Source: an uncultured Gammaproteobacteria bacterium
Lineage (GTDB): Bacteria > Patescibacteriota > Microgenomatia > Levybacterales > GWA1-39-11
Assembly: GCA_964394645.1 (NCBI GenBank)
Contig: CAYMYC010000005.1
Coordinates: 1-63,113, forward strand
Length of the DNA stretch: 63,113 bases
Direction of reading: 5' to 3'
A program made the translations under genes and the position numbers. The notes below the pieces were generated by a model that ran no database searches, was not told the DNA's origin, and was given only the letters and a program-made list of their open reading frames with translations. Positions within the stretch are counted from its first letter, which is position 1, and every line of letters begins with the position of its first letter. Below, one piece after another: positions 21,960 through 40,305 of this stretch.

Positions 21960-22487
21960 CTAGACCACTTTATATACTAATTGGACCGTGCCATTATTAT
22001 TTAATTTTTTCACACTCTCAAGCCTCAACCTGCTATACGCTCCAATTTCTTCCATGAGTGTCTTTCCCTTACCGAATACAACGGGCTCTATTGTGAGATG
22101 AATCTCAGAAATTAATTTTTTTTCTAAAAATAAAGAATTGATCTCTCCTCCTCCAACAAGTAACGCCTGTTTTACTCCTTTTTTTCTATATTTTGCAATA
22201 ATCTTTCCAGGCGCTTCAGAGGTGAATTCAAGCACTCCAGGAATTTTTTCTTTTTCATATCGTTTTTCGTTCTTCGTAAAAATAACTCTCACTCGCCCTT
22301 TCTTGTGTACCATAATATGTTTTGCTATATCATAAGTTTTTGATCCCATGAATATTAATTTGGCTCTATCAATATGTGAAAAAAATATTTGTTGATCTTC
22401 TTTACTAGTCCACGTATAAATATTGGGGCTTACTCCAGATGTTATTTTTCCGTTTATACTGGAAACAGCTAGTAGAATAATATTCAT
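21960..22487 (-). CDS. RibD C-terminal / dihydrofolate reductase family protein
   Basis: SINGKI, MGSKTY, LVGGGEIN, IEPVVFGKG. Confidence 0.85.
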   Translation of the reverse strand: MNIILLAVSSINGKITSGVSPNIYTWTSKEDQQIFFSHIDRAKLIFMGSKTYDIAKHIMVHKKGRVRVIFTKNEKRYEKEKIPGVLEFTSEAPGKIIAKYRKKGVKQALLVGGGEINSLFLEKKLISEIHLTIEPVVFGKGKTLMEEIGAYSRLRLESVKKLNNNGTVQLVYKVV

Positions 22488-22498
22488 GCACGGTGAGT

Positions 22499-23161
22499 TT
22501 ACTTTTTTCCCCTTAACCATTTAACACCCAGATAAACAAATGGAGTCTCAATTGCTGATGCGAAACATTTTAATAACCAGTATGGGAGTATTACGCTTGA
22601 GAGAAATATCAGATTATCATAAACTGGCTTATCTAATGCGTAAAAAGCTAAAGTTATAAATAAAATCGTATCAAATAATTGAGCTATACCATTTGATAAG
22701 TTATTTCGAAACCAGAGCGCTTTGCTTCCTAGTTTTTTCTTGATTTTTAAAAACACATATATGTCTGCAAATTCAGAAATTATAAGCGCAATAAGCGATG
22801 CTGCTGCGAGCCTTGTTGAGAAGCCAAAAATTGTATCATACGCATTCTCACTCTTTGTAAATCTCATAGAAGGAGGGAGAGATGTCGCAAGGATTGTAAA
22901 AAGAAAGAGAATAAATACAACAATAATTCCTGATCTTACTACGCTTCTTGCACGCGCTCTTCCATAAACCTCTGCAACCATATCATTTATTGTAAAAACA
23001 AAAGGAAATAAAAAGATTGCAATACTTGCATTGAGTTGATATCCCAAAATGTTTATAAGGGGAAATGTTTTTGCTCCCATTAATTCAGACGCGACAATAC
23101 AGAAGATATACGCAGATATAAGTAAATCCATTTTTTCCGCTGGTAAAATTGCCCTTATCAT
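22499..23161 (-). CDS. queuosine precursor transporter (YhhQ/VUT family)
   Basis: FPFVFTINDMVAEVYG, RNNLSNGIAQLFDT, ETPFVY. Confidence 0.85.
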   Translation of the reverse strand: MIRAILPAEKMDLLISAYIFCIVASELMGAKTFPLINILGYQLNASIAIFLFPFVFTINDMVAEVYGRARARSVVRSGIIVVFILFLFTILATSLPPSMRFTKSENAYDTIFGFSTRLAAASLIALIISEFADIYVFLKIKKKLGSKALWFRNNLSNGIAQLFDTILFITLAFYALDKPVYDNLIFLSSVILPYWLLKCFASAIETPFVYLGVKWLRGKK

Positions 23162-33882: not shown

Positions 33883-35349
33883 TTATATTTTTTTTGGAAC
33901 ACCCTTTGCCAACTCTACAGCATAACCAAGATAAGTCTCCGGTGTTAGTTTTTTCAAGTAATCCTTATGATCCTTACTAACTGGTAGATTATCAATTAAT
34001 TCATGCCATTGCTCTTGCCCCATATGATTACCTCTCACTAATTGCTTCATTAATTCATAAGGATCTGCAACATCAGTAAATGCTCGTAAATAAACCTGCA
34101 CTGGCTCGCTCAATATGGTCCAATCATTTTTAAGAACATCTTTCATTACCGAAGCGTTTATCGCAGTTTTTGGAAAGCCTTCAAGTATTGAAGCATAACC
34201 TACAGTTGCAAGCCCTAAAGCCAAACCAACGTTTCTTATCTGAGTACTATCTCTCAAATCTCTTTGAAATCGGGATCTAGGAAGTCTACGCGCGAATCCC
34301 TCCATGAGGTCAGTTGCCTCCTCCAAATTTCCCTCACTCTTTTCAAAATCAATTGGATTAACTTTTTGTGGCATTGCAGAAGATCCTGCCTCGCCTGATT
34401 TTGGTATCTGAACAATCCAATTATCCGAAATGTAGTGCCACATATCATCGTCTAAACCTACAAGTATGTTATTAATTCTAGTATAGTTTTGCAGATACTC
34501 TGCAACATCATCATAGGGGTTTATCTGCGTTGTCATGTCATTTGGAGTAAGCCCAAGAGACTCTACAAAATCCCTTGAAAAGTTAATCCAGTCTTTTTCA
34601 GGATGAACATACCTCATAGAACTCCAATTCCCCACTGCACCATTCAGCTTTCCAGTCAAACGTTGCTCTGCTAACTTTTTCACCTGCTTCCTTAGCCGTT
34701 CTTGGAAAACACCAAACTCTTTTCCAGCTGTAGTAGGTCCGGCAGCCTGACCATGCGTTCGTGCCTCCTCAACAGTTTCTGCGTGCTCTTGTCTCACGTT
34801 CCCAATGTTAGAGTCAAGATTATCCAAGATTGGAAGAATGACTGCATGGGTTGCCCGCATCAAGTTAAGTCTGAAAGTGAGATTATTTTTATCATCTGAG
34901 GTCAAAAAAATATCATTAAATTCTGAAAGATCCGCTAGTGAGGTCTTACTGAATTTTTTCTTCATATGTAAGCGCAGTGCCACAACGTCATGATTAGTCT
35001 TCCTTTCAAAAGCCTTAACATCTTCCACATCAGCCTCAGTCATCTTCTCGCCAAAAGTATTTAGCGTTTCTATTTCTTCCGCTGTTAATGCGCGAGGAAG
35101 CACTCCGCCCAATTTATCTAACGCAATAAGATATTTCCCTGATATTTCTGCCCTAGTGGTGAATGTAGCAAACTCTGAAAAATAAGGAGCTATTGATTTG
35201 GTTAAACGACGATCCCGCCCATCAACCGTTGACAGGGCGAATAATTTATTGTCAGGAATCTGATCTACATGCGGAGATGGTGGAATATAGAGTCCTGGTA
35301 GTCTTTCAGAGGTTGCCATTTTTTCTTTACTTTTTTGGGCGGGTTTCAT
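33883..35349 (-). CDS. purB: adenylosuccinate lyase
   Basis: TNHDV, ARTHGQ, GSSAMPQKVNPIDFE, RFQRDLRDST. Confidence 0.92.
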   Translation of the reverse strand: MKPAQKSKEKMATSERLPGLYIPPSPHVDQIPDNKLFALSTVDGRDRRLTKSIAPYFSEFATFTTRAEISGKYLIALDKLGGVLPRALTAEEIETLNTFGEKMTEADVEDVKAFERKTNHDVVALRLHMKKKFSKTSLADLSEFNDIFLTSDDKNNLTFRLNLMRATHAVILPILDNLDSNIGNVRQEHAETVEEARTHGQAAGPTTAGKEFGVFQERLRKQVKKLAEQRLTGKLNGAVGNWSSMRYVHPEKDWINFSRDFVESLGLTPNDMTTQINPYDDVAEYLQNYTRINNILVGLDDDMWHYISDNWIVQIPKSGEAGSSAMPQKVNPIDFEKSEGNLEEATDLMEGFARRLPRSRFQRDLRDSTQIRNVGLALGLATVGYASILEGFPKTAINASVMKDVLKNDWTILSEPVQVYLRAFTDVADPYELMKQLVRGNHMGQEQWHELIDNLPVSKDHKDYLKKLTPETYLGYAVELAKGVPKKI

Positions 35350-35431: not shown

Positions 35432-36040
35432 CTAATACTCTCTTCTTCCTTCAAGTGCGCGGTCAAGCGTTGTCTCGTCAGCATATTCTATATCCGCTCC
35501 TATAGGAAGTCCGTGACCTATGCGCGTGAGTTTTATCCCGTCAACCCTTTCCTTTAATTTTCTTACTATATACATGGCAGTGGCTTCTCCTTCCATGGTG
35601 GGATTTGTTGCAAAAATAATCTCCTCAAGCTCATTTCCTAATGTTTTTACTCTGCTTAATAACTGCGGGATGTATATGTCATCCGGACCTATACTGTTGA
35701 GCGGATCTACAACACCATGGAGAACGTGATACACACCTCTATATTTTCCGCTTCGTTCAATTGCCAAGACGTCCAGTGCGTCCTCAACTACACAAATAGT
35801 TCCTTTATCCCGTCCCGGATCGGAACAAATAAAACACGGGTCTATATCTCCAATGTTATAGCACAATGAACATAAAACTGTTTCTTTCTTTAGATGTACT
35901 AAATCATTAGCAAACTGTTCCAAGTTGCTCTGGGGAACATGAAGCAAATAAAACGCGAGTCTTTGGGCAGATTTTGGTCCAACGCCAGGCAGGCGCTCAA
36001 AATCTTCTATAACGCGCGAAAGAGCTTTAGGTAGTCTCAT
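35432..36040 (-). CDS. recR: recombination protein RecR
   Basis: LPGVGPKSAQRLA, C4 zinc finger, YHVLHG, EGEATA, EYADETTL. Confidence 0.95.
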   Translation of the reverse strand: MRLPKALSRVIEDFERLPGVGPKSAQRLAFYLLHVPQSNLEQFANDLVHLKKETVLCSLCYNIGDIDPCFICSDPGRDKGTICVVEDALDVLAIERSGKYRGVYHVLHGVVDPLNSIGPDDIYIPQLLSRVKTLGNELEEIIFATNPTMEGEATAMYIVRKLKERVDGIKLTRIGHGLPIGADIEYADETTLDRALEGRREY

Positions 36041-36146
36041 AACGGTAACCATTATATAACAAATAACCAACACATATATTCCATTAAAATTAAATCAAGA
36101 GTTCACAAACTCACATTCCTAAAAACTCATCACTTCCCTCCCCTTG

Positions 36147-36170
36147 AAACCGTGGACTAGTCCACGGACA
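36147..36170. promoter_or_regulatory. 24-bp site with perfect 18-bp palindrome CCGTGGACTAGTCCACGG (copy 1)
   Basis: Exact reverse complement of 37312-37335. Confidence 0.7.
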
Positions 36171-36216
36171 TTTATGAAATTAATAGGCAAATATAGGAGA
36201 TTAACGAGGGGAAAAA

Positions 36217-36774
36217 TTATACTTTCATAAGCTCTTCTTCTTTTTGAAATGCGAGATCATCAATTTCTTTTATATAGTGGTCAGTTAAGCGCTGTATCTC
36301 TTTTTCAACACGTACTATCTCGTCCTCTGAAATCTCTTGTTTCTCCAGTTTTTTTGCGTCTTCCATACCGTCATGTCTTATTTGCCTCATCATGACTTTC
36401 CCCTGCTCTCCTTTTTGTTTTATCATTTTGACAAATTCACGTCGCCTATCCTCAGACAATGGAGGTAGATTTATCCGAAGAAAATTTCCATCTATTATTG
36501 GATTTATTCCAATCTTTGCGTCTTGTATCCCGTGTTCAATCTCACCGATAACACTGTGATCAAAAGGTGTAAGTACGAGTGTATGTGCATCCTGTACATG
36601 AATTGTTGCAAGCTCCATCACTCTAAGAGGCGTCGCTCCGCCATATGCTTTAATAATTATATTCTCAACAAGAGATGGAGACGCCTTTCCCGTTCTAACG
36701 CTAGCAAAATCCATCCTGACGGAATCCAATGCTTTTTGCATTTTTTGCTTCACCTCGGGGGTAATTATATCCAT
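36217..36774 (-). CDS. frr: ribosome recycling factor
   Basis: VRTGKASPSL, YGGATPL, LPPLSEDRR, IRQ/IRHD. Confidence 0.95.
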   Translation of the reverse strand: MDIITPEVKQKMQKALDSVRMDFASVRTGKASPSLVENIIIKAYGGATPLRVMELATIHVQDAHTLVLTPFDHSVIGEIEHGIQDAKIGINPIIDGNFLRINLPPLSEDRRREFVKMIKQKGEQGKVMMRQIRHDGMEDAKKLEKQEISEDEIVRVEKEIQRLTDHYIKEIDDLAFQKEEELMKV

Positions 36775-36897
36775 AATAATATCTATGAGGATAACAAAAC
36801 ATCATCTAATAATCAATCATCACTTCCCTATTCAAGCATATTTGGCTACCCTCCTGATGTAGACTAGTCAATAGGCACATACGACATAGTGCAAGAA

Positions 36898-37308
36898 TTA
36901 TCTTTCTATGTCTTTTTTTGTAATCCCTGTATATACCTTTTTCTTCCAAATTAGCGTAGATCCACCCACCTCTTTATATTTCTTTTTTTCATACTCTGTC
37001 TTAACCCTTTTTCCCCTTCTTTCAATGAGCATAAATCCATTTGGATACTTCTCTACTCTTCTCAGTATGTGAGTAACCGTACTCCTACCTACTTTTAACA
37101 GATCGCATATCTCAATATTTGTCATCGAATCTTTGATGCATTCAGCAATCATTATCCTTCTTCCTAATTGAAATTTCTCTTCATCAGTAAATAAAGATTT
37201 CATGATTTCCTCAACCTCATGCCCATCCTTTGCAGCAAGCAAAGCATCCCTCAGCTTATTCCAAGCTGAAAAAATATCGTCTTGTGATATGTCTTTATAT
37301 CTTTTCAT
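36898..37308 (-). CDS. TrpR/YerC-YecD family transcriptional regulator
   Basis: LFTDEEKFQLGRRIMIA..EICDLLKVGRSTVTHI HTH. Confidence 0.75.
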   Translation of the reverse strand: MKRYKDISQDDIFSAWNKLRDALLAAKDGHEVEEIMKSLFTDEEKFQLGRRIMIAECIKDSMTNIEICDLLKVGRSTVTHILRRVEKYPNGFMLIERRGKRVKTEYEKKKYKEVGGSTLIWKKKVYTGITKKDIER

Positions 37309-37311
37309 TAG

Positions 37312-37335
37312 TGTCCGTGGACTAGTCCACGGTTT
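37312..37335. promoter_or_regulatory. 24-bp palindromic site (copy 2), candidate operator of the TrpR-like gene
   Basis: Palindrome 37315-37332 lies 6 nt upstream of the ATG. Confidence 0.7.
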
Positions 37336-37495: not shown

Positions 37496-38605
37496 TTATT
37501 TAGGAAGTAGACTTTGCCCAGATGCGATACGGATAATATCAAAGAGCGTGATTACAAGCATAAGACCTAAAAGCACCACAAGTCCTGCAGCGTGCGCATA
37601 TGATTCATACTTTGGATTTACTTTCTTGCGAGTTATAGCCTCTATTATGATAAAGAAAAGCCTTCCTCCATCTAGTGCCGGAATGGGTAAAACATTTAAA
37701 ACCGCAAGATTTATAGATAATAACGCGGTAAACCATAAAGTTGCTGTAACACCATATGAAACTGCTTTACCTGTAAGCTGAGCAACGCCAATTGGTCCTG
37801 CAACTCCTTCAGGCTTGTGCCCTTCAAAAACAAGCGTGGATACCATTTGACCTAAACCCGCAACTATCATCCATGAAAATTTAAACGCTTCAATTGTTCC
37901 AAAAAAAGGAGCTTGATACCATGGATATTTTTTAACTTCTATATCCGTTATTCCAACTCCCACTGGACCTTGACCCTTTGGATACTTACTTCTTGGGGTC
38001 AATTGAATATCTCGTAACATTTCACCCCTCTTTATTGTAAGCGCGACTTCTTTCCCTTCGTTTTTTTGAATTGTTTGGATAAATTCTTTTGTAGATAAAA
38101 TCCTTTCATTATTTACTGCTTCCACCACATCTCCAGATAAAAGCCCGCTAGATGCTGCGGGACTATTTTTTAGGACCTCAGTAATTCTGACAGTTGAGGA
38201 AGGAATTGCAACTCCGGTAGTACTAAAGACATAGGAAATAAGCACTACAGCTAAAACAAAATTCATGACTACACCCGCAACAACTACCAAAAATCGCTGC
38301 CATACAGGACGCGCATAAAACGCACGCCCTATATCTTTTGTTAGCAAGTCTTTCCCTGTAGCCTTTTTTACACTTCCACCACCTGCAGCATCTTCACCGT
38401 ATAACTTCACAAATCCTCCAACAGGAAGAAGATTTATGGAATACATAGTCTCTCCTTTTTTTATTCCAAAAACTCTTGGTGGAAATCCAAATCCAAACTC
38501 CTCAACCTTAATTCCAAACTTTTTCGCAGTTAAAAAATGACCGAGCTCATGGATGAGCACTAGAATTGAAAGAATAATAACAAACGCAATGATAGTAATT
38601 AGCAT
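37496..38605 (-). CDS. rseP: RIP metalloprotease RseP (M50, PDZ)
   Basis: HELGH, PDZ domain, NVLPIPALDGG. Confidence 0.92.
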   Translation of the reverse strand: MLITIIAFVIILSILVLIHELGHFLTAKKFGIKVEEFGFGFPPRVFGIKKGETMYSINLLPVGGFVKLYGEDAAGGGSVKKATGKDLLTKDIGRAFYARPVWQRFLVVVAGVVMNFVLAVVLISYVFSTTGVAIPSSTVRITEVLKNSPAASSGLLSGDVVEAVNNERILSTKEFIQTIQKNEGKEVALTIKRGEMLRDIQLTPRSKYPKGQGPVGVGITDIEVKKYPWYQAPFFGTIEAFKFSWMIVAGLGQMVSTLVFEGHKPEGVAGPIGVAQLTGKAVSYGVTATLWFTALLSINLAVLNVLPIPALDGGRLFFIIIEAITRKKVNPKYESYAHAAGLVVLLGLMLVITLFDIIRIASGQSLLPK

Positions 38606-38649
38606 TATTGAAATATTATACACAAGAAATAAAACGTAAAGAAGAGGTA

Positions 38650-38892
38650 TTAATGATTGTTGGTAAAATCAATCTTACCGTTTGGCTGAATGGTAAATTC
38701 TGGAACATCTAACAGGATTTCATGTGGTTGAGCTTCTTTTGACTGCTCAGGTTTTTTTCCAATTCTCTTCTGTTGCATCTTAATTAACTTCCTGTTTCTC
38801 TTCATTTCTTCAATTACACCTTTACTGTGAGAAGCACTAAGTTCACTTTTAAAACCCATGTATGAACTAATTTGTTCGTTGCGCTTTCCCAT
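38650..38892 (-). CDS. hypothetical protein
   Basis: ORF only. Confidence 0.5.
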   Translation of the reverse strand: MGKRNEQISSYMGFKSELSASHSKGVIEEMKRNRKLIKMQQKRIGKKPEQSKEAQPHEILLDVPEFTIQPNGKIDFTNNH

Positions 38893-38896
38893 ATAT

Positions 38897-39355
38897 CTAT
38901 TCCCTCCCCAACTCTACGCGAGAGAAACGACCAAGAATAATATTTTCGCCTAATTTTGCTACAGCCTCTTTTATTAGAACTTCTATAGTTTTTGAGGAAT
39001 CTCTTATATACTCCTGCTCAAGTAATTCATTCGTGTTCTTCGGATTCATGGAAGATATTTGAAGGGCAATCTCATGTGACAATGTCTTAAATTCATCAGT
39101 GCGTGCAACAAAGTCAGTCTCGCAAAGAAGTTCCACTAAAACTCCAATTCTTCCTGCATGTACATAAGAATCTATCAGTCCTGAATTGGTTGCACGATCA
39201 CCTTTTTTTGCTGCCTTTTCAAAACCTTTTTTCTGAAGAATCTCTTCTGCTTTTTTCAGATCTCCCTTGGACTCCTCAATAGCCTCTCTACAGTCCGCAA
39301 TGCCTGCGCCTGTTTTTTCACGTAATTCTTTTATAAGTTTTGTATCAACAGCCAT
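38897..39355 (-). CDS. tsf: elongation factor Ts (short form)
   Basis: IKELREKTGAG..C, ELLCETDFVAR, KLGENI. Confidence 0.95.
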   Translation of the reverse strand: MAVDTKLIKELREKTGAGIADCREAIEESKGDLKKAEEILQKKGFEKAAKKGDRATNSGLIDSYVHAGRIGVLVELLCETDFVARTDEFKTLSHEIALQISSMNPKNTNELLEQEYIRDSSKTIEVLIKEAVAKLGENIILGRFSRVELGRE

Positions 39356-39373: not shown

Positions 39374-40189
39374 TTATTCTTTTGATTTCTTAGTGGTTTT
39401 TTTAACTTTTACTTCTTTTTCAGAATCTTCTACTGCTATCTCTTCTTTTTTCTTTTCCTCACTTAACTCATCTGCGTGCTTCTTTGCTGCATTCTTCTTC
39501 CCCTCTATCCACGCGTCCATAATATAGCTTGTGATAAGTTTTATTGAGCCCACAGCATCATCATTTGCAGGAATTGGGTAATCTATTACGGATGGGTCAG
39601 CATTTGTATCAACTATTCCCACAATCTCTGAATCCATTCTCCTGGCCTCGTTCACTGCTATCCCTTCCGATTGAGTACCCACAATAAACAATGCGTCAGG
39701 AATGTCAGTCATTTCAGAAATTCCACCATAAAAATCTGATAGTTTTTGACGTTCACGCTCAAAAAGTACCTGTTCGCGCTTAGTATATGCATCTTTCTTA
39801 CTTGTTGAAAGTAACTCCTCAAGATTTTTCAGTTTTTTAATATTCTTTGCAACTTCAGTAAAGTTAGTAAGTGTTCCACCAACCCATCTTGCGGTTATTG
39901 TATACAATTTACCAGGAGCTTCTTTCCTAGCTCTTTCAACTTCCTCTTTAACAATTTGTTTTGCTTGTCGTTTTGTTCCAACAATAATTAATGACCCATC
40001 ACGAGCCGATAATTCTTTTATATATTTTGCTGCTGCAAGGAGTCCTTCACGAGTCTTCTCAAGGTTTATAATATGCACATTTGAACGGGCTTCAAATATA
40101 TATTCGTCTGCTTTTGGATTGCGGCGATTTACTTGGTGACCAAAATGGCAACCTGCTGTAAGTAATTCTTCAAGGGTTATATCTTTCAT
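39374..40189 (-). CDS. rpsB: 30S ribosomal protein S2
   Basis: LLTAGCHFGH, RWVGGTLTN, IVDTNADP, IPANDD. Confidence 0.97.
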   Translation of the reverse strand: MKDITLEELLTAGCHFGHQVNRRNPKADEYIFEARSNVHIINLEKTREGLLAAAKYIKELSARDGSLIIVGTKRQAKQIVKEEVERARKEAPGKLYTITARWVGGTLTNFTEVAKNIKKLKNLEELLSTSKKDAYTKREQVLFERERQKLSDFYGGISEMTDIPDALFIVGTQSEGIAVNEARRMDSEIVGIVDTNADPSVIDYPIPANDDAVGSIKLITSYIMDAWIEGKKNAAKKHADELSEEKKKEEIAVEDSEKEVKVKKTTKKSKE

Positions 40190-40194
40190 AGTTC

Positions 40195-40305
40195 TTTTTA
40201 TCAACCATGCTTATTCTGAGATGGTTGATCCTCCATTCGGGTCTGAGGATTCCTCAGAACTATATTCATCCCGAATGTGTGAATTTTCGGTTTATTTCCC
40301 GAATA
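40195..40305 (-). promoter_or_regulatory. rpsB 5' leader (candidate S2 autoregulatory RNA)
   Basis: TATAAT at 40310-40315; leader has CACAC, UUCGGG/CCCGAA pairing, a CUGAGG/CCUCAG hairpin and GGAGG. Confidence 0.55.

Follow-up and report, generated by a model that had tools for sequence, protein, structure and literature searches.

In Escherichia coli, TrpR represses its own gene, and in the trp operator, whose CTAG motifs are spaced 8 bp apart, each helix-turn-helix reads a CTAG lying ~4.5 bp from the dyad. For HisR (YerC), another member of the TrpR family, comparative genomics has identified lineage-specific palindromic operators of 20 bp (PMC9413887). Here, we describe a TrpR-family gene, and the CTAG-centered palindromes that surround it, on contig CAYMYC010000005.1 (positions 1 to 63,113, forward strand) of assembly GCA_964394645.1; this stretch of 63,113 nucleotides, which we refer to as the window, is filed under an uncultured Gammaproteobacteria bacterium and has the GTDB lineage Bacteria; Patescibacteriota; Microgenomatia; Levybacterales; GWA1-39-11. 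An original prediction, made by a model that worked from the letters of the window and their open reading frames (ORFs), had proposed that two identical sites, which bracket this gene and the adjacent frr, belong to a regulon of the TrpR-like regulator. Our analysis indicates that the palindrome, 18-24 bp in length and centered on CTAG, is probably the DNA operator of the adjacent regulator and that a pair of such sites likely brackets an autorepressed unit. The regulator represents a new TrpR subfamily that is restricted to the Candidate Phyla Radiation (CPR) and is distinguished by an added tail and by an operator-gene-operator layout, the proposed self-regulation itself being mechanistically familiar. 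In the literature searched, we found no published description of this family and none that links the TrpR family to CPR/Patescibacteria; to our knowledge, transcription control in these bacteria is almost uncharted.

Palindromic sites around the regulator gene

The window contains exactly two copies of the 18-mer CCGTGGACTAGTCCACGG (perfect cores of S_up and S3 in Table 1). No further match with three or fewer mismatches was found in the window, and none of 100 dinucleotide-preserving shuffles contained two matches. As the original prediction had it, the two copies are identical and lie in inverted orientation (AAACCGTGGACTAGTCCACGGACA versus TGTCCGTGGACTAGTCCACGGTTT), one of them (the proximal site, S_up) just upstream of the regulator ATG and the other (S3) past the stop codon of frr and before the start of recR, 50 nt from the former and 110 nt from the latter. 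The 24-bp palindromic site that it described also stands, but the repeat is longer than reported, i.e. 33 nt with 94% complementarity and two mismatches (36147-36179 versus 37303-37335), and includes the start and second codon (ATG AAA) of the regulator. Further, a third, degenerate copy (S_dn) had been missed; it matches the core at 12 of 18 bases, and its center is 32 nt past the regulator stop codon and 458 bp from that of S_up. The arm at 36147-36179 extends 12 nt past the operator and duplicates the regulator's ACAnTnATGAAA. Because 13 of the 15 positions outside the palindromic core agree between the two perfect copies, S3 is a duplication of the proximal site and not a convergent one. 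When we scanned the window for weaker sites (six or fewer mismatches), we obtained seven matches compared with 4.1 expected, among which, besides the three sites at this locus, only positions 22398-22415 were notable. This sequence, TTCTTTACTAGTCCACGT, contains a perfect right half-site, ACTAGTCCACG, within a coding ORF (21960-22520, minus strand) and is probably a chance occurrence. Two side observations concern the arms and their surroundings. First, the 36147-36179 arm opens an 18-codon plus-strand ORF (36175-36231, MKLIGKYRRLTRGKIILS*) that runs antisense to the frr 3' end; the sister species (see below), in which the site is absent, did not show this ORF, and it is probably a by-product of the duplication of the arm. 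Second, the motif AGGGAAGTGATGA (minus strand; 36120-36139 and 36810-36829) follows both S_dn and S3.

Homologue loci were collected at 37-93% identity, and 74 distinct loci had both flanks available. A site was scored when GTNNNCTAGNNNAC occurred with no more than one mismatch within 50 nt before the ATG or within 65 nt after the stop codon. Of the 74 loci, 56 had such a site before the ATG, 54 had one after the stop codon, and 46 had both; elsewhere in these loci, i.e. in ~303 kb, there were 53 matches, which were mostly single-mismatch chance matches or sites just outside the search windows. We note that the CTAG-centered GTnnnCTAGnnnAC palindrome flanks the regulator in relatives regardless of the neighboring genes. 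Of 57 loci, 14 have the CCA-adding enzyme gene and 5 have rseP as the upstream neighbor, and the downstream neighbor is YqeY (11 of 61), frr (6 of 61), RecX (3 of 61), or one of many others, with the same layout also occurring beside recA/RecX and other genes. The rseP-regulator-frr context is retained from 100% down to 50% identity, and 11-14 of the loci examined have the cca-regulator-yqeY context. The upstream site is centered ~15 nt before the ATG in most loci and the downstream site about 25 nt (15-30 nt) past the stop codon. Folding of 272 half-sites gave the consensus kTwCmGTnGwCT (the half-site in the window reads AAACCGTGGACT), and positions outside those used for selection are conserved as well, namely -9 (C, 71%), -3 (A or T, 99%), and -4 (G, 68%). 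The distal site is retained in 16 of the 18 loci in which the next gene is convergent, i.e. where the site is located between two stop codons, and, therefore, it is not the promoter operator of the next gene; by this placement, it appears to belong to the regulator gene. No trp genes were found among the neighbors in any locus examined, and a link of the regulator to tryptophan is unsupported. No single functional theme emerged among the neighbors. A DNA repair theme was considered and rejected: recA, RecX, UvrB, recR, and RecJ occur, but the CCA-adding enzyme/YqeY and rseP/frr dominate.

An exact search for the 18-mer in 185,579 species-representative genomes returned 10 stretches, five of them in Levybacteria. 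With one or two exact copies per related genome, the site is rare and is not an abundant repeat unrelated to TrpR-like genes. Three of the five Levybacteria copies (L013, L017, and L021) are located directly before the ATG of a homologue, and the other two are lone sites with no regulator nearby. One of these (L018, 5483-5500), in the same metagenome-assembled genome (MAG) as the regulator locus L017, overlaps a TTGACA sequence ~90 nt upstream of a gene for an ATP-cone and Mrr-like nuclease protein; the other (L019, 1372-1389) is flanked by a HAD hydrolase gene and an MliC-like gene. Both would be candidate regulon members. Thus, of the uncharacterized regulon that had been proposed, the part formed by the regulator's own flanks is supported by comparative evidence, whereas a wider regulon is only hinted at by the lone sites in related MAGs. 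The exact 18-mer is also found in three stretches from unrelated phyla (L015 7535-7564, L016 6285-6326, and L020 736-765), where it is embedded at gene ends in longer perfect palindromes of at least 30 nt (e.g. ATGGAACCGTGGACTAGTCCACGGTTCCAT), and these copies look like unrelated hairpins. Some family members have sites that are not centered on CTAG, i.e. GTCAATC-GATTGAC at L089 and CTGT/CTGG centers at L064 and L078.

In a sister species with a 93% identical regulator (L001, L002, and L021), we found the proximal site and a good distal site, CTATGGACTAGTCCACGG (16 of 18 bases), right after the stop codon, and no site between frr and recR. S3 is absent from the same spacer in the relatives L001, L002, L005, and L017. 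Because so close a relative has no frr-recR site, the bracket that includes frr is derived and specific to this species; in the ancestral and general form, the regulator alone is bracketed. The claim that the pair brackets both frr and the regulator is therefore correct for this species but not in general. In this species, the distal site has decayed and a perfect inverted duplicate of the proximal site is located beyond frr, so that the regulator and frr are now both inside the bracket; as re-drawn, it ends ~95 nt before the likely -10 element of recR. Every sampled word of the stretch is present in 19 public runs (from wastewater, freshwater, groundwater, and sludge), a 20th run contains 0.99 of them, and four DNA assemblies are collinear, with no joints. 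This indicates that, as far as contigs tell, the arrangement is fixed and does not represent a switching population. As a side observation, the regulator-frr spacer of the sister species (L001 3475-3631) is a purine-rich tandem array of ~150 nt with GGATGAGGAT/GGAGTGAGGA-type units and TRF periods of 11-38.

The inner triplet of the half-site (positions -5 to -3) varies by lineage (GGA, GCA, GTA, TGA/TGT, AGA, AAT, GCT, and others) and is usually common to both copies within one genome. The covariation of palindrome and helix-turn-helix that the original prediction had proposed to look for is present, the inner bases co-varying with residues 75, 79, and 80 of the regulator. When residue 75 is lysine or arginine, position -4 is G in 47 of 53 loci, and with any other residue, it is not G in 19 of 21; the mutual information between residue 75 and base -4 is 0.83 bits, a value reached in none of 2000 shuffles. 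Residues 79 and 80 co-vary with the site too, and no covariation with the site was detected in the same test for residues 73, 78, and 81, which are buried or backbone positions. The TrpR residues at the equivalent positions (I79, T83, and R84) contact DNA. Further, one Levybacteria genome, as judged by source names and locus tags, contains two paralogues, A3C27_01765 (L017 4382-4795) and A3C27_01090 (L102 4001-4411), and the triplets are GGA at the rseP/frr context and TGA/TGT at the cca/yqeY context, which would fit orthogonal specificities.

Most family sites have a single CTAG on the dyad, with the specificity bases located 3-5 bp (~4 bp) either side of it, which is where the recognition helices of a TrpR-like dimer would lie. 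However, some are doubled: CTAGs exactly 8 bp apart occur 12 times in 12 kb of flanks compared with 3 times in 317 kb elsewhere, and no other CTAG-CTAG spacing is enriched in the flanks. Doubled sites are found, for example, at L102 4425-4450 (GTCGTCTAGTCGACTAGACGAC) and in the flanks of L037, L031, L050, L065, and L027, and each comprises two overlapping 14-bp units. The structures matched by the regulator (see below) include PDB 1TRR, which is, by its title, a TrpR tandem-binding complex. A tandem mode in which two dimers share the central CTAG fits the covariation at -4 less well. The likeness to E. coli is thus one of spacing and family and not of the bases read. In other words, the analogy drawn originally holds for the CTAG palindrome but not for CTAG as the bases that are read, because here it is mostly on the dyad.

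The regulator protein

The regulator matches the Pfam family Trp_repressor (PF01371) with 36.1 bits (cutoff, 27) over residues 15-94 and profile positions 2-82 of 88, and it has no other Pfam domain. It scores below the cutoffs of both NCBIfam equivalogs, with 20.4 bits versus 67.25 for TIGR01321 (trp operon repressor) and 18.9 bits versus 42.2 for TIGR02531 (YerC/YecD, i.e. HisR). An AF2 model built from a 120-sequence alignment has a pLDDT of 92.8 and displays six helices, with a TrpR-like helical domain at residues ~9-109, the helix-turn-helix at residues 64-87, and a C-terminal β-hairpin at residues 111-126. The best Foldseek matches in the PDB are 3FRW, 3KOR, and 3G1C (target-normalized TM, 0.74-0.78), followed by E. 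coli TrpR, and the top 27 matches are all TrpR-like or TrpR (probability, 0.98-1.0; target-normalized TM, 0.57-0.78). In a PDB profile search, YerC-type structures were matched with E values from 1.4e-7 (3G1C) to 3.7e-7 and TrpR with an E value of 6e-4. The protein is, therefore, nearer to YerC/HisR-type structures than to TrpR. The initial description of the protein as TrpR/YerC-like is borne out at the level of the family by Pfam, profile search, and fold, but it does not extend to either equivalog.

Alignment with hhalign places G74-R75-S76-T77-V78-T79-H80 on TrpR G78-I79-A80-T81-I82-T83-R84, and T41/E44/G49/R51 on TrpR T44/E47/G52/R54. The equivalents of the TrpR pocket residues T44, R54, and T81 (i.e. 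T41, R51, and T77) are invariant or nearly so, and residue 80, the equivalent of R84, which pairs with R54 in the corepressor pocket of TrpR, is variable (H, S, F, A, T, W, and others). Conservation of the tail, VGGSxLVFKKKxYTG...RKDIxR, equals that of the helix-turn-helix, and the tail may be an oligomerization or additional DNA contact element. A homodimer would agree with both the palindromic form of the sites and the covariation. This is a compact family: of the 1.84 billion representatives in a library with clustering at 50% identity, 15 were matched at 1e-30 or lower and 52 at 1e-10 or lower, the named members are Candidatus Levybacteria or Patescibacteria, and nearly all are exactly 136 aa in length. 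A search of the window for a second paralogue of the family found none. An IS200-like reading of the locus (hairpins at both ends of a ~140-aa gene) was also considered and is ruled out by the TrpR fold and the lack of an HUH motif.

Proposed autoregulation and competing explanations

The best reading of these results appears to be the one favored at the outset, i.e. that the palindrome is the operator of an autoregulating TrpR-like protein, given that the site is rare, flanks orthologues and paralogues in unrelated contexts, and co-varies with the protein. We infer that the regulator binds as a dimer, most likely centered on CTAG, and that the start of its recognition helix (residues 75, 79, and 80) reads the variable bases at a distance of 3-5 bp from the dyad on each side. 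The site before the ATG would overlap the transcription start or the early leader and so bring about negative autoregulation, and the second site, ~25 nt past the stop codon, would close the bracket around the regulator's own transcription unit. The constant position of the distal site relative to the stop codon, whatever the neighboring gene, suggests that it acts jointly with the proximal site, either as the second anchor of a repression loop or as a protein roadblock that insulates the unit from neighboring transcription. Given the two candidate -10 hexamers of the regulator in the window (Table 1), the operator would span about +6 to +29 in its entirety or lie deeper in the leader. In the family as a whole, the interval 10-19 nt 5' of the center of the upstream site is enriched in -10-like hexamers, and the corresponding interval at the downstream site is not; the transcription start would, therefore, fall in the left arm. 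A position matrix anchored on the site center revealed no fixed -35/-10 elements. We note that there is no clear Shine-Dalgarno sequence before the regulator, S_up adjoining the start codon, and that metatranscriptome contigs cover both perfect sites, with a lower depth over the regulator than over frr.

Several observations weigh against autoregulation from bracketing operators. First, a promoter scan of the window gave counts at chance level, and the candidate -10 hexamers are not significant; the metatranscriptomes (X25-X28) are unstranded assembled contigs, which give neither start sites nor strand. Second, about a quarter of the loci have no recognizable site on one side, and S3 does not overlap the likely recR promoter. 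Third, the two copies in a genome often share asymmetric bases and flanks (28 nt in L006, about 30 nt in L009, 24 nt in L010, and 33 nt here), which indicates duplication or gene conversion between the copies, rather than selection for binding alone. Fourth, the covariation statistics ignore phylogeny, and there are perhaps 6-8 independent lineages in which residue 75 is neither lysine nor arginine. Finally, looping gains no support from the operator distances (436-461 bp, with a tail to 500 bp), which display no helical periodicity (Rayleigh z below 1.5 for periods of 8-12.75 bp); absent phasing is, however, uninformative at this length and neither supports nor excludes a loop of ~450 bp.

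A more far-reaching version of the operator reading, which we regard as possible but rather doubtful, is that the bracket is a functional module. Binding at its ends would create a loop or roadblock, the unit would be both autoregulated and insulated from adjacent transcription in the gene-dense CPR genomes, paralogues would be kept orthogonal by a readable code (e.g. lysine or arginine at residue 75 pairing with G at -4), and the module could be re-drawn by duplication of a site. If so, a duplicated site would have brought a housekeeping gene, frr, inside the bracket. Independently of this version, a bracket that encloses frr and abuts recR may tie ribosome recycling or recombination repair to the signal of the regulator. 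Sequence alone yields a compact, lineage-restricted regulator family, a probable 24-bp operator, and a candidate residue-to-base rule, together with an unusual architecture, with a further copy of the operator past the stop codon of the gene, that most of the relatives examined have kept. A synthetic gene and oligonucleotides would suffice to test each of these proposals, and the organism need not be cultured.

Four other explanations for the palindromes were weighed against the operator reading. It seems improbable that they act as stem-loops in the regulator mRNA, one at its 5' end and one at its 3' end, which would mask the ribosome-binding region or protect or end the transcript irrespective of any DNA binding by the protein. 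The two perfect copies in the window can indeed fold as a 7-bp hairpin (-12.6 and -10.9 kcal/mol; z, -2.6 and -1.9), and both the position of the proximal copy at a start codon without a clear Shine-Dalgarno sequence and the metatranscriptome contigs that span both sites would be in keeping with such a role. However, the orthologous sites at L005 and L009 fold no better than shuffled sequences (z, -0.01 and -0.47, respectively). Further, when we examined arm pairing in 136 sites, pairs 1, 2, 4, 6, and 7 were almost always complementary, but pair 3 was non-complementary (A/A or T/T) in about half of the sites, and pairs 8 and 10 often were. The non-Watson-Crick combinations comprised 261 unpairable, 84 G-U, and 66 A-C; because G-U is barely above A-C, there is no strand-specific RNA signature. 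In addition, the -10-like hexamers would start the transcript inside the left arm, and a stem would leave the covariation with recognition-helix residues unexplained. The terminator-type variant, which the original prediction had listed as an alternative, fares no better: a terminator scan of the window gave counts at chance level and called neither perfect site a terminator, and no T-run follows the sites.

We consider it just as improbable that the site-gene-site unit is, or was, a mobile cassette, with the repeats as terminal repeats or att-type cores and the protein as its DNA-binding component. The many different gene contexts, the sequence that flanking copies share beyond the binding consensus, the lone copies in related genomes (L018 and L019), and a weak match of the protein to the IS630 transposase N-terminal helix-turn-helix (18 bits versus a cutoff of 100) would all be expected of a cassette. 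On the other hand, the locus encodes neither a catalytic domain nor a transposase, the sole gene in the general form of the bracket encodes a 136-aa TrpR fold, and the two main contexts are stable over deep divergence, as described above. There is one copy per contig, with a single genome that has two diverged paralogues, and no target-site duplications were seen.

Even less credible is the inversion alternative listed at the outset, in which the inverted copies would be recombination sites and flipping of the 1.1-kb regulator-frr block would switch expression: a 33-nt inverted repeat does flank the block, and its imperfect ~24-bp palindrome resembles hix-type sites, but there is no recombinase among the neighbors (rpsB, tsf, rseP, frr, recR, and the lyase gene), asymmetric site pairs in relatives are direct about as often as inverted, and the orientation of the regulator is constant relative to cca/yqeY or rseP/frr. 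The proposed check of the orientation of the 1.19-kb segment also went against inversion, as the four independent DNA assemblies revealed no inverted form, with the limit that contigs drop rare variants. The last alternative, that the palindrome is a generic repeat (REP-like or terminator) or the site of another protein (e.g. of a restriction-modification system) and is adjacent to the regulator by coincidence, is similarly remote, and the counts have already refuted it for the most part. SpeI recognizes ACTAGT, the window has fewer CTAGs than expected (118 versus 208), as do genomes with CTAG-directed systems, and three exact 18-mers are found in unrelated phyla, yet the exact copies are few in related genomes, all three occurrences of GACTAGTC in the window are at this locus, conservation reaches positions 9 either side of the dyad and, thus, well past ACTAGT, some family members (L089, L064, and L078) do without CTAG, and the site is both linked to and co-varies with the regulator.

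Neighboring genes and relation to known systems

The regulator gene is located in a minus-strand housekeeping cluster in the order rpsB, tsf, an 80-aa ORF, rseP, the regulator, frr, recR, and an adenylosuccinate lyase-like gene, frr being placed between the two perfect sites (Table 1). The most likely start of recR is the ATG at 36040 and not the GTG at 36073 given in the ORF list, since homologues start with MRLPKA. A TATAAT sequence lies only ~12 nt 5' of this ATG, which suggests that recR may be leaderless or nearly so. The following are side observations. There is no obvious Shine-Dalgarno sequence before frr. The 80-aa ORF between tsf and rseP has no Pfam match, and its place and length are unchanged in the sister species (L001-L004). 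The lyase gene that follows recR encodes a 488-aa form with Pfam ASL_C (PF08328) in the window, and its counterpart in the sister species (L001 5133-6411) encodes a 443-aa form with ADSL_C (PF10397) that is ~32% identical to it; this difference between close relatives looks like a non-orthologous replacement at one position.

Table 1. Coordinates of the sites and genes at the regulator locus in the window
Feature	Position	Strand	Remarks
Proximal site (S_up)	37312-37335		24 bp; perfect 18-bp core at 37315-37332; core edge 6 nt 5' of regulator ATG (37308)
Decayed distal site (S_dn)	36854-36877		Core at 36857-36874; 12/18 bases; plus strand ATGTAGACTAGTCAATAG
Third site (S3)	36147-36170		Perfect core at 36150-36167; inverted copy of S_up
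Candidate -10 hexamer of regulator, TATCAT	37353-37348	-	Consensus match only
Candidate -10 hexamer of regulator, TATAAT	37377-37372	-	Consensus match only
Regulator gene	36898-37308	-	136 aa; TrpR family; Pfam PF01371 and structure searches
rpsB	39374-40204	-	
tsf	38897-39355	-	
80-aa ORF	38650-38892	-	
rseP	37496-38623	-	
frr (ribosome recycling factor)	36217-36774	-	Stop codon at 36217; Pfam RRF 9.8e-54; TIGR00496 185 bits
recR	35432-36040	-	TIGR00615 240 bits; start set by homologue comparison
Adenylosuccinate lyase-like gene	33883-35349	-	

When compared with E. coli TrpR, the regulator belongs to the same Pfam family and has the same fold, and TrpR residues T44, E47, G52, R54, G78, and T81 correspond to T41, E44, G49, R51, G74, and T77. 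The E. coli trp, aroH, and trpR operators and the sites of this family are palindromic and contain CTAG, and the doubled sites share the 8-bp CTAG-CTAG register. The differences are, first, that the regulator is 136 aa in length with an extra conserved β-hairpin tail, falls below the equivalog cutoff, and varies at the equivalent of R84; second, that CTAG is here mostly on the dyad, whereas each TrpR helix-turn-helix in E. coli reads one CTAG; and third, that a second operator is found past the gene's own stop codon, with no trp genes nearby. By profile and fold, the closest solved structures are those of the HisR/YerC-YecD branch (B. subtilis yerC; 3G1C, 3FRW, and 3KOR). HisR, however, is less than 100 aa in length and controls his genes from sites upstream of its targets, whereas the conserved targets here are the regulator's own two flanks, and its neighbors serve translation or DNA repair. 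The lac O1-O2 and gal OE-OI pairs likewise consist of two copies of one palindromic operator, one promoter-proximal and one downstream, a likeness that suggests cooperative looping, and the lac operators O1 and O2 likewise lie a few hundred bp apart. This analogy is functional only, as the protein families are unrelated, and, in contrast to lac and gal, the distal site here lies past the whole gene, is kept between convergent genes, and displays no helical phasing.

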